This document shows, in pieces, positions 307 through 9,277 of a DNA stretch of 9,277 bases. Position numbers and translations under genes: made by a program. How positions within the stretch are numbered: position 1 is the first letter of the stretch; the number at the start of each line of letters is the position of its first letter. Origin of the DNA: a virus (Duplodnaviria > Heunggongvirae > Uroviricota > Caudoviricetes). Below the pieces are notes generated by a model, which worked only from the letters and a program-made list of their open reading frames with translations, made no database searches and was not told the origin of the DNA. The stretch lies in IMG/VR virus record IMGVR_UViG_2526164632_000010; one strand, given 5' to 3'.

Positions 307-322
307 TGGGGCTGTCCTTTTT
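295..322. terminator. Bidirectional intrinsic terminator between convergent genes
   Basis: Stem CAGCCCC (296-302) / GGGGCTG (308-314) with loop GTGAT containing the stop codon; flanked by an A-run upstream and a T-run downstream, so it is U-rich after the hairpin on both strands. Confidence 0.6.
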
Positions 323-845
323 ACCAGAGCTGAACCATTTTCTGGGTTCCGTCAGGCTTGAGATTATCAATTTCAGAGAAAACGTAATATTGAATGGCTT
401 CACAAACGGTGGTGTAGGGTGAATTACCTTCTTTAAGTGGCACGATATTATTATTAACGCGAACCTGTATTTCATCGTTATACATTGCGATCGAAAGAGG
501 AGTATGCACGAAGGCGACTTCGCCAGGTGTGTCGTCAACCACTGTCTCAATGCTGAAAATCAGTTTTCGCTCATCATTGCCGCCCCTTGCTTTGGGGGTA
601 GCGGCAGGGATCTGAGATAAAGGCATTCTGCGAAATCCTTCGGCTGCTTCCAGTCCGCATGAAACGTAATGCTGGCGATTACCGTCGCTATCTGTCCAGG
701 TCTGTGATGGCAGCTCCAGCGAGATTTCATAAGCATCAACAATGCCCTGGGCAAGGCGTACAAGCGGGGTCAGATCTTCATTGCGGCGAAAGCTCTCCTT
801 TACCTGCTCCCGTTTTTCTCTTAACTGCTTGTAATTAATGACCAT
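321..845 (-). CDS. Hypothetical protein, 174 aa (orphan cargo gene)
   Basis: ATG at 845..843 preceded by GGAGG with a 7-nt spacer. The listed 187-aa ORF starts at an upstream GTG without an RBS, so the shorter start is preferred. No family recognised; region looks AT-richer than the replication gene by eye. Its stop abuts the bidirectional terminator. Confidence 0.6.
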   Translation of the reverse strand: MVINYKQLREKREQVKESFRRNEDLTPLVRLAQGIVDAYEISLELPSQTWTDSDGNRQHYVSCGLEAAEGFRRMPLSQIPAATPKARGGNDERKLIFSIETVVDDTPGEVAFVHTPLSIAMYNDEIQVRVNNNIVPLKEGNSPYTTVCEAIQYYVFSEIDNLKPDGTQKMVQLW

Positions 846-875
846 AAGACAGCCTCCATTGATTTCTTTGCTCGT

Positions 876-904
876 ATTTTGCACTTACGAAGTATGGTCG
901 GCAA
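876..904 (-). promoter_or_regulatory. Predicted sigma70 promoter for the 174-aa gene
   Basis: On the minus strand: -35 TTGCCG (complement of 899-904), 17-nt spacer, -10 CAAAAT (complement of 876-881), about 25 nt upstream of the ATG. Sequence-only prediction. Confidence 0.3.
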
Positions 905-1343: not shown

Positions 1344-1373
1344 TTGTGCAAACTTGTGCACTATCGTGCAAAC
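1344..1373. repeat. Three (T/C)GTGCA motifs phased at 10-bp intervals
   Basis: TTGTGCAAAC (1344-1353), TTGTGCAC (1354-1361), TCGTGCAAAC (1364-1373). Helical-turn phasing suggests a protein-binding array; function unknown. Confidence 0.5.
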
Positions 1374-1396
1374 AAAAAAGCGCCTTATCGGCGCTT
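1371..1396 (-). terminator. Intrinsic terminator on the minus strand, just after the 89-aa ORF
   Basis: Minus-strand RNA would read AAGCGCC-GAUAA-GGCGCUU followed by UUUUGUUUG. Stem is 1378-1384/1390-1396. Only an A-rich tail follows on the plus strand. Confidence 0.6.
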
Positions 1397-1404
1397 CAAA
1401 AATA

Positions 1405-1674
1405 TCAATTGTTGCTGTGTATTAATCGCCAACCACGAACATATGCTTCATAAGCATCTCTGTGCCTTACAGTTCCAGCCTGGCTAAACGGAATGTTAGC
1501 TAAAACTAAATCATTCTGAGCCATAGCGCGTCCTTCAAGCGCATCTTTTATGCCTAGCTCAAAAGCACAGGCAGCGCATTTGTGCCGACCTTCTTGTCCT
1601 TGATATTCAGGGAGAGACAGAAATGTTGGGTTATAACGATGAGGGTTCTTGCAAATACCTGTTTTAGCCCGCAC
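1405..1674 (-). CDS. Hypothetical small protein, 89 aa (candidate effector of the antisense-regulated module)
   Basis: GTG start at 1674 with GAGGT about 9 nt upstream. An alternative internal start at ATG 1524 with AAGGA and a 6-nt spacer would give 39 aa. Terminator lies directly after the stop. No family recognised and no transmembrane segment. Confidence 0.4.
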   Translation of the reverse strand: MRAKTGICKNPHRYNPTFLSLPEYQGQEGRHKCAACAFELGIKDALEGRAMAQNDLVLANIPFSQAGTVRHRDAYEAYVRGWRLIHSNN

Positions 1675-1741
1675 TTTATTTACCTCATAGGAAAAATATG
1701 CGTGCCTTTACAGAGGTGCGTGTAAGCAATAAAATATACGA

Positions 1742-1838
1742 CGCACATTTTGATTTACTTCGGAAGGCACGCATATCAGGTTAAGTGAGTCCGACCGAGT
1801 TCTACGCCCCAATAGTTGCTGCTATTGGGGCGTTTTGC
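1742..1838 (+). ncRNA. Candidate antisense sRNA of about 95 nt, opposite the leader of the 89-aa gene
   Basis: Plus-strand promoter-like -35 TTTACA (1707-1712), 17-nt spacer, -10 TAAAAT (1730-1735). Ends at a strong terminator (1805-1832 stem plus TTTT). No plus-strand protein gene explains this terminator. Confidence 0.35.
1804..1838 (+). terminator. Intrinsic terminator on the plus strand
   Basis: Perfect 11-bp stem CGCCCCAATAG (1805-1815) / CTATTGGGGCG (1822-1832), loop TTGCTG, followed by TTTTGCAT. No U-tract on the minus strand. Confidence 0.65.
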
Positions 1839-1882
1839 ATGGACAATGCCGCGCAATTATCTTGTCGCTCACAATGCGAACG

Positions 1883-1910
1883 ATCTTACAAAAAGGCACA
1901 TTACTGTCAA
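1883..1910 (-). promoter_or_regulatory. Predicted sigma70 promoter driving the minus-strand leader and 89-aa ORF
   Basis: On the minus strand: consensus -35 TTGACA (complement of 1905-1910), 16-nt spacer, -10 TAAGAT (complement of 1883-1888). It sits in an AT-rich spacer containing several GATC sites. Confidence 0.4.
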
Positions 1911-2038
1911 GATAATTGATCGTTTTAATCGATAGATAATAGACAATCTATTTGTTTAACAGATCGATTATTGAAGTAAGTGCGCCAAATGGAATGATAC
2001 TGTTTCTATAAATGTGAGCATTTTTCGCGCAGATGCTT

Positions 2039-2354: not shown

Positions 2355-3314
2355 TTACTCCTTGTTCATTGCGTACAGCCCATTAACCAGAGCAAACTGT
2401 GGCACCCCGTCCGCGATGAAAGTCGCATTAACTCCGCAGGCTTCGCGGATAGCGGGTGCCACAATCTCCGCCCCTCCACCGACAACCATCACCCGCCCGT
2501 AACCGGAAAAACCCGCCAGCGCGCGGATCACTCGTTGTTTCAGTGTCTCCTCCTTTTCACGAATAACCGCCATCAGGCTGTTGTAATGCGCGTCATTGTG
2601 AATGTGCTGGCGCAGCCAGGCTTCATCGTGACGGTGCTCAATAATGGTATTGGCGATGTGGTGACTGGTACGCATACCGTTAGTGGCCATCACCGACAGC
2701 ACGGCATCAGCCATCAGGGAAACGCCTACGTTTGGATCGCAAAACACCTGGCTGATACCTGCCAGCTGCCCCTGAACCTTTGCCACATCCAGCGTGGTTC
2801 CGCCCAAATCCACAATCAGCAGGGATTCAAACGGACTCATGTCAGCCAGTGCCTTAAAGCCAGCCGGAATGGATTCAGGCATAACCCGTACGTTACGGAT
2901 AGTGAATGCTTCGCCGTTCTGGTACTCCACCGGGCGCATGACGTTCGCTTTTTTGCGGTTGATGTTGGCCATGTCCGGCTGTGCGTTTGTGTCGAAATAC
3001 TCGCTCAGTGGCAGGGTGACAACCACATCCACCTCCTGTGGCGTGATGCCTGATTTGACCAGCGCGTGATGAATGGCGATTACATTCACATCGCTGTACT
3101 GGTATTGCGTGTCAGTCGTCTGGACAAAACGATCGCTGACCGGATCAAAGCCATAGCGCACGCCATCAAGCATGTAGTTCGCGGGATGCGTGCCACCGAA
3201 CGGCGCAGACCATTCCGACTTGAAGCTGTTCGGGCTGATGGCGTTGCGGCGTTCGCCGTTCTCAGTCCATGCCAGCTTGATGTTGGTGGAGCCGTCGTCG
3301 ATACAAATTTTCAT
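2355..3314 (-). CDS. parM: ParM/StbA-like actin-type plasmid segregation ATPase, 319 aa
   Basis: ATG at 3314 with AAGGA 8 nt upstream. Motifs shared with R1 ParM as recalled: N-terminal IDDGSTNIKL, YSDVNVIAIHHAL, NRKKAN, VMPESIPAG, LIVDLGGTTLD, GVSL, GGGAE, LVNG. Confidence 0.93.
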   Translation of the reverse strand: MKICIDDGSTNIKLAWTENGERRNAISPNSFKSEWSAPFGGTHPANYMLDGVRYGFDPVSDRFVQTTDTQYQYSDVNVIAIHHALVKSGITPQEVDVVVTLPLSEYFDTNAQPDMANINRKKANVMRPVEYQNGEAFTIRNVRVMPESIPAGFKALADMSPFESLLIVDLGGTTLDVAKVQGQLAGISQVFCDPNVGVSLMADAVLSVMATNGMRTSHHIANTIIEHRHDEAWLRQHIHNDAHYNSLMAVIREKEETLKQRVIRALAGFSGYGRVMVVGGGAEIVAPAIREACGVNATFIADGVPQFALVNGLYAMNKE

Positions 3315-3344
3315 GTCGATTTTCCTTATGTTGGTTAATTAACC

Positions 3345-3457
3345 GTTTACGGGATTTTTAAATCCCGCTTTCGCCTGTTTTGTGCGCGCTTCATATATCG
3401 CGGCGCGTTTTTTGCTCATTTACGGGATTTGTGGATCCCGTTTCTGTCTGTTTTTTG
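3345..3457. repeat. Two imperfect 40-bp direct repeats, each with a CGGGAT...ATCCCG inverted repeat, upstream of parM
   Basis: Copy A at 3345-3384 and copy B at 3418-3457, about 30 of 40 positions identical, 73 bp apart. Copy A is intergenic; copy B overlaps the last codons of the replication gene. Position relative to parM matches a parC-like centromere/operator. Confidence 0.45.
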
Positions 3458-6204: not shown

Positions 6205-6570
6205 TTACTTCGTTATGCCATTCAGGGTGTCGCGGCAGACTGTAGCCAGCCGCTGAATTTCCAGCACGGTGTCTTCTGTGTCGGCATGGCGATGTGTGAT
6301 GCGGATGCTGTCGGCAATCACATCGACGATTGCAGAGGATGGGCGCTGGTAAATGCCAATAACGGACGGGGTGCCACCTTCAATGCGGTAAAGCCTGTAA
6401 TTTCCCTCGTGGCTGTCAATCATGTAGCGACCATCAATAACAATCTTTCCGTCAGCGAGCTGCGGTACAGGCAGGGATTTCAGGTACATGTCATAACGTT
6501 CACGCACGCGAACGGCAAGATCACGTTCTGTGTTGAGCAGGTATTCAAGAAAGTCGTTGGCGAGAATCAT
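6205..6570 (-). CDS. Hypothetical protein, 121 aa (early operon, directly upstream of the replication gene)
   Basis: ATG at 6570 with AAGAGGA about 8 nt upstream; tightly linked to the replication gene. No family recognised. Confidence 0.6.
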   Translation of the reverse strand: MILANDFLEYLLNTERDLAVRVRERYDMYLKSLPVPQLADGKIVIDGRYMIDSHEGNYRLYRIEGGTPSVIGIYQRPSSAIVDVIADSIRITHRHADTEDTVLEIQRLATVCRDTLNGITK

Positions 6571-6642
6571 TGCGGCAATCCTCTTGTTACAGATGTGCGA
6601 AGGCCTCCCGCCGCAAGGTGCAGGAAAGGCCCGGAACAGGAA

Positions 6643-6873
6643 TTAATGGAGTTTGTTTTGCTGCTGGATGAGCTGCTGAAGCTCGCGCAGATCATCCGCC
6701 AGATAACTGAAAACAGCGGATGAATAGAGGTTTGAAAGTTCGCAGCTACGCTCATGCAGCATATTGATGTGCATGATTTGCGCGACGCGTGATGCGCGGG
6801 AAAGTCTGCGGTTGATTTCAGTCTGGATGTGACGACGCTCCGCGATAGTGCGGTGCTGTTTGCGGTTTGCCAT
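6643..6873 (-). CDS. Hypothetical small basic protein, 76 aa (possible regulator)
   Basis: ATG at 6873 with AGAGG and a 7-nt spacer. Basic N-terminus and helical-looking sequence. An overlapping 205-aa ORF in another frame is low-complexity and was rejected. Confidence 0.55.
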   Translation of the reverse strand: MANRKQHRTIAERRHIQTEINRRLSRASRVAQIMHINMLHERSCELSNLYSSAVFSYLADDLRELQQLIQQQNKLH

Positions 6874-7050
6874 GGTGTGGCCTCTACGTGTGTAAGTTTT
6901 GAAAACTCACCATCCAGAGCTGCGAAACTGTGGGTGGCGAGACGTACGAGGTTCGCAGTACCGGCAAACGCAGAACCCGGCCCGACCGAAGTCGGCCCCG
7001 TACGCCCCACCATAATTCTGATGCGAAAAAGACGTGGCGATACAGTACGC

Positions 7051-7073
7051 ACAAAAAAACCGCTGGCGCGGTT
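7051..7073 (-). terminator. Candidate intrinsic terminator or attenuator inside the early operon (minus strand)
   Basis: Minus-strand RNA would read AACCGC-GCCA-GCGGUU followed by UUUUUGU. Located about 120 nt downstream of the 99-aa gene and upstream of the 76-aa gene. Confidence 0.45.
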
Positions 7074-7195
7074 GTGCGCTACGTTTGTCAGCGGGCTGCG
7101 AAACCCGGCACCCGTTTTATGAGGTGCAGCGGAAATGTAACCTGACTGATTGCGGCATGGCAAGCGGTTTTTTTGTGTGTGCATGTTCTGGTTTC

Positions 7196-8664: not shown

Positions 8665-9277
8665 TGGATTTGCCCCTATATTTCCAGACATCTGTTATCA
8701 CTTAACCCATTACAAGCCCGCTGCCGCAGATATTCCCGTGGCGAGCGATAACCCAGCGCACTATGCGGATGCCATTCGTTATAATGCTCGAACGCCTCTG
8801 CAAGGTTCTTTGCTGCCGTTAACCCGTCTGGTTTGGGCATGATACTGATGTAGTCACGCTTTATCGTTTTCACGAAGCTCTCTGCTATTCCGTTACTCTC
8901 CGGACTCCGCACCGCCGTGTTCTTCGGTTCAAGTCCCAACATCCGGGCGAACTGGCGTGTTTCATTAGCCCGGTAGCATGAACCATTATCCGTCAGCCAC
9001 TCCACTGGAGACGACGGAAGATCGTTGCCGAAGCGGCGTTCCACCGCTCCCAGCATGACGTCCTGTACTGTTTCACTGTTGAAGCCGCCGGTAGTCACCG
9101 CCCAGTGCAGTGCCTCACGATCACAGCAGTCCAGCGCGAACGTGACACGCAGTCTCTCTCCGTTATCACAGCAGAACTCGAACCCGTCAGAGCACCATCG
9201 CTGATTGCTTTCTTTCACGGCCACTCTGCCTGTATGTGCCCGTTTCGATGGCGGTACAGCAGGTTTTCGCTCAAGCA
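8665..9277 (-). mobile_element. IS2 (IS3 family), right-end 613 bp; the element continues beyond the window
   Basis: Terminal sequence TGGATTTGCCCCTATATTTCCAGACATCTGTTATCACTTAACCC starting at 8665 matches the IS2 right inverted repeat as recalled. Contains the 3' part of insD. Confidence 0.9.
8676..9277 (-). CDS. insD: IS2 transposase OrfB (InsD), C-terminal part; 5' end outside the window
   Basis: C-terminal sequence ...[41 protein letters not shown] matches IS2 InsD by recall. Frame stays open from 9224 to the window edge. Confidence 0.9.

Follow-up and report, generated by a model that had tools for sequence, protein, structure and literature searches.

Architecture of the locus

A 9,277-nucleotide (nt) stretch of DNA from the viral record IMGVR_UViG_2526164632_000010 (hereafter the window) carries a compact module in which a small open reading frame (ORF) is preceded by its own promoter and a long leader, and in which a second promoter inside this leader faces the first. 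The whole window is a P88-like prophage (Xuanwuvirus, P2-family) of Escherichia coli, and is 99.9% identical to a chromosomal prophage of enterotoxigenic E. coli (ETEC) H10407. With its native control elements included, the cassette spans ~540 bp, and the G+C content of this region is 39%, compared to 53% for the window as a whole.

An earlier reading of the bare sequence (the original prediction) had proposed that this locus produces an mRNA and an antisense RNA from convergent promoters. All of the parts it named are present at the positions it gave (Table 1): a promoter on the minus strand, an 89-amino-acid (aa) ORF with a terminator just past its stop codon, a promoter on the plus strand, and a perfect 13-bp inverted repeat with a nested 6-bp stem. 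The hairpin of the plus-strand terminator that was also proposed is there too, with perfect 12-bp arms (1804-1815/1822-1833), a plus-strand folding energy of -22.7 kcal/mol and a stem that covaries among homologues, but a consensus terminator scan does not list it because its tail is only TTTTG. The original prediction did not mention the 11-bp inverted repeat in Table 1, one arm of which overlaps the sense -35 hexamer while the other lies at about +12 to +22. This repeat is lineage-specific; L057, the closest of the diverged alleles, lacks it.

Table 1. Elements of the small ORF module, in coordinates of the window.
Feature	Position	Strand	Description
Sense promoter	1883..1910	-	sigma-70-type, TTGACA-16-TAAGAT; predicted transcription start ~1876
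Sense 5′ leader	1675..1876	-	~202 nt, folded, -68.9 kcal/mol, z = -3.4 vs shuffles
Antisense promoter	1707..1735	+	TTTACA-17-TAAAAT, inside leader
Predicted cis-antisense RNA	1742..1838	+	~97 nt, both ends predicted
Hairpin 1, putative antisense terminator	1804..1838	+	12-13 bp stem, TTTTG tail
Leader hairpin 2	1696..1776	-	perfect 13-bp arms 1696-1708/1764-1776
Small ORF	1405..1674	-	89 aa, GTG start, GAGG at 1684-1687, 8-nt spacer
ORF terminator	1377..1397	-	8-bp stem then TTTTTTGTTT, 7 nt past stop codon
11-bp perfect inverted repeat	1854-1864/1908-1918		CAATTATCTTG / CAAGATAATTG, brackets sense promoter

Like the leader, the predicted 97-nt plus-strand RNA folds better than shuffled sequences (z = -3.4). 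The nested stem of hairpin 2 (GTGCGT/ACGCAC, 1716-1721/1742-1747) is seen in the predicted fold, and the arms of this hairpin enclose both the antisense promoter and the antisense start site. An ACCU at the base of hairpin 2 is predicted to pair with the Shine-Dalgarno sequence AGGU. In other lineages the place of hairpin 2 is taken by a different inverted repeat.

No other site in the 9,277 nt reaches the 10 of 12 consensus matches of these two promoters, which share a single 246-nt non-coding stretch. At least two such sites are seen in 1% of local dinucleotide shuffles and in 22% of window-wide shuffles, and the latter value makes the count of promoter sites weak evidence when taken alone.

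Comparative evidence for an antisense RNA

In an alignment of 15 leaders (A5), just 16 columns are invariant, and eight of these are bases of the antisense promoter. Specifically, the invariant promoter bases are TGTAAAG, which contains the TTTACA -35 hexamer when read on the antisense strand, and the -10 positions T1, A2 and T6. Two other invariant columns belong to the start codon and three to hairpin 1. The sense promoter also keeps its position in this alignment, diverged alleles have leaders of like architecture, and their ORFs are likewise followed by a terminator. At least eight lineages with unrelated spacers carry the form TTTACA, 17 nt, [T/C]AnnnT, in which the -10 hexamer reads TAAAAT, TACGAT, TAGACT, TAGAAT, TACTCT, TAATCT, TAGTCT or CACAAT. 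This promoter lies 35-40 nt from the start codon, or 45 nt in an allele from Gilliamella (L043) that carries TTTACT. The same pattern occurs in 37 of 81 distinct leaders, compared to 0.3% of shuffled leaders. Nearly all of the lineages examined have a hairpin with a T-rich tail on the antisense strand, 65-100 nt past the predicted antisense start, and a group from the human gut has textbook U7 antisense terminators.

The stem of hairpin 1 covaries. In a covariance model built from a MAFFT alignment, misregistration of the 3′ arm left only four base pairs, and base-anchored stem alignments were used in its place. Among the cells of the stem 92.3% are paired, and 6 of 10 pairs exhibit compensatory changes on both sides. 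The resulting covariation score is 0.622, compared to 0.197 for shuffled controls (0 of 500 reach the observed value) and at most 0.18 for controls in which the alignment was slid. The structure also favors one strand. When the stem is read as antisense RNA it contains 15 G-U pairs, compared to 3 when it is read as sense RNA (6 versus 1 for the inner ten pairs). Folding energies point the same way: the antisense form of hairpin 1 is the more stable one in 14 of 20 cases. For the antisense RNA as a whole, the antisense strand is favored over the sense strand in 17 of 21 homologous elements, with a mean gain in stability of 6.6 kcal/mol.

Conceivably, there is no functional antisense RNA at all, and the boxes and hairpins are conserved for an action on the sense mRNA or on DNA. 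Hairpin 1 would then be a stabilizer or a processing site, TGTAAAG would be bound by a protein, and the inverted repeats would serve as operators, possibly with a tie to Dam methylation at GATC. Such functions would suit the inverted-repeat arms that bracket both promoters in E. coli, the GATC that overlaps the sense -10 hexamer (1882-1885), the 2.5-fold enrichment of GATC upstream of these genes, and the 88.5% pairing of hairpin 1 when it is read on the sense strand. They would also suit a Providencia-like group, in which the hairpin is equally or more stable on the sense strand and no strand preference is evident. However, the stem changes in sequence while its pairing is kept, which is the behavior of an RNA structure and not of a protein-binding site, and both the G-U excess and the folding energies favor the antisense strand. 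Moreover, T1, A2 and T6 of the -10 element are invariant at a fixed 17 nt from TTTACA across a spacer that is free to vary, as is characteristic of a sigma-70 promoter, and it is only on the antisense strand that a T-rich stretch comes after the hairpin. We consider it unlikely that the conserved elements serve only the sense mRNA or the DNA.

Beyond the Providencia-like group, several observations count against a conserved antisense RNA. Within the E. coli lineage, 165 of 166 genomes have leaders of at least 99% identity, which leaves no room for covariation and makes this lineage uninformative; one variant (L016) breaks a stem pair without compensation. Among the 81 distinct leaders of the wider family, 44 do not have the antisense promoter pattern. 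Several of the antisense terminator tails are poor U-tracts (for example TTTCCCTTAT), and that of L043 is clearly poor. The stem alignments were registered by hand, with loops trimmed to four bases, and the P values overstate independence because the compared lineages share ancestry. Finally, both transcription start sites and the antisense 3′ end are predictions.

On balance, the convergent layout put forward in the original prediction is supported, because the promoter and terminator are kept in diverged alleles, hairpin 1 covaries, and the G-U pairs and folding energies favor the antisense strand. On these comparative grounds, an antisense RNA complementary to the leader, which is one hallmark of type I toxin-antitoxin systems, appears to be encoded, since sequence and comparison indicate conservation of its promoter, its terminator and its strand-specific RNA structure.

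An Rfam search suggested with the original prediction did not place this RNA in any family: positions 1300-2100 of the window give no match at the gathering level, and eight homologous loci also give none. The best hits below threshold, to ctRNA_pGA1 and sar (22 bits; the threshold for sar is 43), cover only the terminator hairpin. We found no description of this RNA or of the protein in the literature. Another suggested check, for conservation of the stems and the ORF in related prophages, was positive, in that the ORF belongs to a wide family, the cassette occurs in three kinds of prophage, and the stem covaries.

A widespread family of small soluble proteins

The 89-aa ORF matches PHROG 3941, a phage protein family of unknown function (E = 6.3e-49), with residues 4-89 aligned to positions 1-86 of the 86-position profile. 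A word-based search for homologues returned only near-identical proteins, whereas an exhaustive search of representatives revealed a wide family of 172 representative clusters at 50% identity, most of whose members are stand-alone proteins of 80-95 aa. The invariant residues (C8, H12, R30, G41, Q65 and R70) and nearly invariant residues (Q25, H31, C33, C36, S64 and H71) form a Cys-His-Cys-Cys set and two Q-x-G-x-x-R-H-K/R repeats. Between alleles, identity at third codon positions is 35%, which is near random, while ~75% of the amino acids are retained, and the ratio of nonsynonymous to synonymous substitution rates (dN/dS) is 0.06-0.11 where measurable. Judged by its sequence conservation, the ORF is a real and widespread gene, even though RefSeq mostly leaves it unannotated (for example in H10407) or otherwise lists it as a "hypothetical protein".

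An AlphaFold model of the protein (pLDDT 90.4) depicts a helical, soluble fold with C33 and C36 placed at the start of helix 1, and the Cys-His-Cys-Cys set is a putative zinc site. This model has no match in PDB or BFVD, and the ORF belongs to no family in Pfam, NCBIfam or PADLOC. The protein is basic and hydrophilic (grand average of hydropathy, GRAVY, -0.57; top 19-residue hydropathy 0.58; isoelectric point 9.2) with no membrane segment. Being soluble and basic, it is therefore not a membrane peptide, and it does not have the small hydrophobic or membrane character that is usual, although not universal, among type I toxins. It also has no homology to any known type I toxin, just as the original prediction had maintained.

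The broader distribution of the domain hints at its function. It is also found fused to DndB/DGQHR, HNH_2, NOV_C and WYL domains, and it forms the N-terminus of a 279-aa protein within a DpnII-type restriction-modification locus. Stand-alone copies can immediately precede BstA (PADLOC, 1e-118), immediately follow a type II restriction enzyme (6e-114), or adjoin a methyltransferase pair (Dam-class and N4/N6). This pattern of fusions and neighbors fits a module that senses or controls by binding nucleic acids or nucleotides, and not a membrane toxin. Thus, the protein likely binds nucleic acids or nucleotides in the course of phage-host conflict.

In some alleles a variable second gene follows close behind the small gene (L057, 1834-2121; L134, 3642-4286; L043, 3108-4028). 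These second genes encode a 95-aa protein of unknown function, a 214-aa protein of unknown function, or BstA, and the allele in the window has none before cos. Such an arrangement suggests frequent cooperation of the small protein with a partner.

Spread of the cassette and its location in prophages

Diverged alleles with the same promoter-leader-ORF-terminator layout are found in P2-like, P22-like and lambdoid prophages and in Gilliamella. Among complete E. coli genomes, 166 of 5426 (3%) carry the cassette, including ETEC H10407 and strains of O111, O55 and O157. In the window, the module is cos-proximal and lies between gpA and the portal gene gpQ, where cargo of P2-like phages resides; this stretch is a published anti-phage defence hotspot (PMC9122126; PMC13586616). 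Another P88-like prophage (L057) carries an allele at the same site, between parR and cos, that shares 64% amino-acid identity. An allele of a P22-like Salmonella phage is located directly downstream of cI, which is the slot that bstA occupies in BTP1 (PMC8585504). The lambdoid alleles are found near Q or the lysis genes.

Exchange between phages has left a visible joint. When the cassettes of L062 (1211-1734) and L133 (3211-3734) are compared, identity is 98% from -280 to -76, 85% from -75 to -1, and 69% in the coding region, where synonymous sites are saturated. This mosaic, with a near-identical promoter and 5′ leader joined to a diverged coding region, indicates that alleles have been swapped by recombination inside the leader. 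In L133 (Salmonella phage BIS08P22), a 78-aa hypothetical protein annotated downstream of cI (3165-3401) shares its DNA with the cI terminator as well as with the cassette's promoter and leader, and is probably not a gene.

GATC sites are unusually dense in the control regions of these cassettes (8.3 per kb, compared to 3.3 per kb in the flanks). They occur at 1882, 1918 and 1962 in the window, and also in loci L004, L043, L057, L062, L096 and others. These sites often overlap the sense -10 hexamer (TAAGATC, TAGGATC) or fall just after the antisense -35 hexamer. The protein family itself co-occurs with Dam-class methyltransferases and DpnII (GATC) restriction loci. From sequence patterns of this kind, a link between the cassette and GATC methylation is possible.

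Proposed regulation and its alternatives

We favor, with moderate confidence, the view that the module is a self-contained accessory cassette of the prophage (a "moron") whose 89-aa gene is gated by a cis-antisense RNA from inside its own leader. The sigma-70 promoter would produce an mRNA that comprises the folded leader, the small gene and its own terminator, with hairpin 1, hairpin 2 and the ribosome-binding site in that order along the transcript. The conserved plus-strand promoter would produce the ~97-nt cis-antisense RNA, which would end at hairpin 1. As predicted, this RNA is complementary over its whole length to the central part of the leader, and its 3′ end falls ~38 nt short of the sense start. 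Its other end remains at least 68 nt upstream of the start codon and off the ribosome-binding site, and therefore it could not block ribosomes directly. Instead, the antisense RNA would hold protein expression down in the lysogen, most likely by forming an extended duplex that is subject to RNase III-type cleavage and decay. Collision or interference between the convergent promoters could be a second component. That both RNAs are actually made, that regulation runs in this direction, and that the protein has the role suggested above are conclusions we infer.

A separate local structure would keep the Shine-Dalgarno sequence paired. Its predicted unpaired probability is only 0.03-0.11, and in other lineages a separate local hairpin sequesters it. 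When the region covered by the antisense RNA is blocked in silico, the Shine-Dalgarno sequence remains paired, and so no translational switch is evident, which adds to the points that weigh against antisense control. Control like that of the tum gene of phage 186 was also considered and was rejected, as no LexA box is present.

A genuine antisense RNA need not be a simple repressor. It might activate the mRNA by opening hairpin 2, or it might serve in trans as an immunity factor that acts on incoming phages with the same cassette, as c4 and sar act on ant. In favor of such roles, the overlap in E. coli takes in the 5′ arm of hairpin 2 together with the ACCU predicted to pair with the Shine-Dalgarno sequence, and phages exchange the cassette as alleles, with recombination joints in the leader. 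Yet the in silico block just described argues against activation, the hairpin that sequesters the Shine-Dalgarno sequence in a second lineage group lies outside the antisense overlap, and the module has no homology to c4 or sar, the latter scoring far below its Rfam threshold. For these reasons, we regard activation or trans immunity as very unlikely.

Alternatively, the module could be a true type I toxin-antitoxin or abortive-infection system, in which unrestrained synthesis of the 89-aa protein is harmful to the cell, for instance because the protein binds DNA. The labile antitoxin would be the antisense RNA, whose loss upon phage attack or upon loss of the prophage would free the toxin. 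The layout is typical of such systems: the leader is long and folded, the Shine-Dalgarno sequence is predicted to be paired, and a near-consensus promoter would give a short antisense RNA with structure of its own. The module also occupies defence hotspots in three kinds of prophage, its homologues adjoin BstA and restriction enzymes, and its domain is fused to nucleases. Soluble type I toxins are known, such as SymE and RalR. However, the protein has no hydrophobic segment and matches no family in PADLOC, Pfam or NCBIfam, and the antisense RNA leaves the ribosome-binding site uncovered. Furthermore, where the domain occurs in other genomes, it has the look of a sensing or DNA-binding part joined to an effector rather than of the effector itself. 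A type I toxin is therefore a somewhat doubtful identity for this protein, and antisense gating of an accessory gene is the reading we retain.

Other features of the window

The gene order on the plus strand of the window is the end of the portal gene, a 187-aa minus-strand cargo ORF, the cos region, the module, parR, parM, gpA, and the C4 and isrK RNAs. The 187-aa ORF (321-884, minus strand) is a second cargo gene, flanked by the portal gene and cos, and shares its strand with the small ORF. It belongs to PHROG 5091 and has no match in Pfam or PADLOC. In ETEC H10407 this gene is probably disrupted, because an IS1 is present at that locus and only a shorter ORF of 130 aa is annotated. Between positions 1268 and 1375, TTGTGCA(A/C) motifs are repeated next to the probable cos end, and may be terminase-binding sites; the genome record of phage P884B11 begins at approximately position 1325 of the window.

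A 26-nt imperfect palindrome rich in ATCGAT/GATC lies between the parR stop codon and the module promoter (1912-1971). It was considered as part of the module and then dropped. The palindrome is common to the P88-like allele L057, where it is also next to parR, and is absent from lambdoid copies of the cassette, and thus it more likely belongs to the phage backbone. It may be the parC centromere, in a position downstream of parR. By eye, no iterons are obvious in the sequence that precedes parM (3315-3390).

Two RNAs of known families are encoded on the minus strand elsewhere in the window: a C4 antisense RNA (6930-7017; Rfam, 80.4 bits) and, beside it, the Hfq-binding RNA isrK (7053-7127; 69.6 bits). 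A 205-aa ORF (6567..7184) is probably spurious because it overlaps both matches. At the right end of the window, in the early region of the prophage, a 182-aa ORF (8676-9224, minus strand) with rve and rve_3 integrase-core domains encodes the transposase of an insertion sequence.

Implications

It is possible, though less likely than not, that this module is the first member of a family of conflict modules, as yet undescribed and gated by antisense RNA, that spread as cassettes among P2-like, P22-like and lambdoid prophages. The product would be no membrane toxin but a free-standing form of a new zinc-binding domain that acts as a sensor or binds DNA, and its role might be in defence, in anti-defence or as a controller, possibly by reading GATC methylation. 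In this reading, the same domain is elsewhere part of DndB-like, HNH and NOV_C nucleases and a neighbor of BstA and restriction enzymes.

Confirmation of the antisense RNA would establish an RNA family new to Rfam, together with a conserved structured leader and a protein domain that has neither a Pfam entry nor a known fold. A soluble, domain-type product would join the small set of phage genes that are gated by antisense RNA, and the cassette would offer a way to study a domain found repeatedly in restriction and abortive-infection loci. Regardless of how the gene is controlled, the cassette fills three classic accessory-gene slots of temperate phages.

Comparison with known antisense-controlled modules

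The hok/sok system (the parB locus of plasmid R1) is likewise carried as a cassette on a mobile element. Its long leader folds so as to hide the ribosome-binding site, and a short, structured antisense RNA is encoded in cis, with a strong promoter and its own terminator. However, Hok is a 52-aa membrane peptide whose translation is coupled to that of mok, whereas the protein described here is a soluble protein of 89 aa with a conserved Cys-His-Cys-Cys set. Sok overlaps the ribosome-binding site of mok, whereas the predicted antisense RNA of this module lies 68-164 nt upstream of the start codon. The two systems have no similarity in sequence or in Rfam.

In tisB/istR-1 and zorO/orzO, as in the present module, the antisense target is far upstream of the ribosome-binding site within a long leader, and the Shine-Dalgarno sequence is masked. 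The RNAs of those systems are divergent and share only short complementarity, whereas here the overlap is full and the antisense RNA is convergent with the mRNA promoter. Their toxins, moreover, are small hydrophobic peptides. The nuclease-like toxins of symE/symR and ralR/ralA are soluble, and thus these systems resemble the module in placing a non-membrane protein on prophage or other mobile DNA under antisense control. Neither is homologous to it, and the modes of pairing differ: SymR covers the ribosome-binding site, and RalA is Hfq-dependent and pairs inside the coding region.

Among phage RNAs, c4 of P1/P7 and sar of P22, both of which act on ant, are also small phage-encoded antisense RNAs that gate a regulatory or accessory gene in the lysogen. 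The genuine C4 RNA of this prophage is encoded elsewhere in the window, however, and the module protein is unrelated to antirepressors. The hotspot genes old and tin of P2 and the bstA gene of P22-like phages occupy the same positions as the cassette. Like them, the module has its own promoter and terminator and moves between phages, but it matches no known defence family. To our knowledge, control by an antisense RNA has not been reported for old, tin or bstA. The module is therefore best described as an antisense-gated mobile-element cassette built around a new protein domain, outside the type I and c4/sar families compared here.

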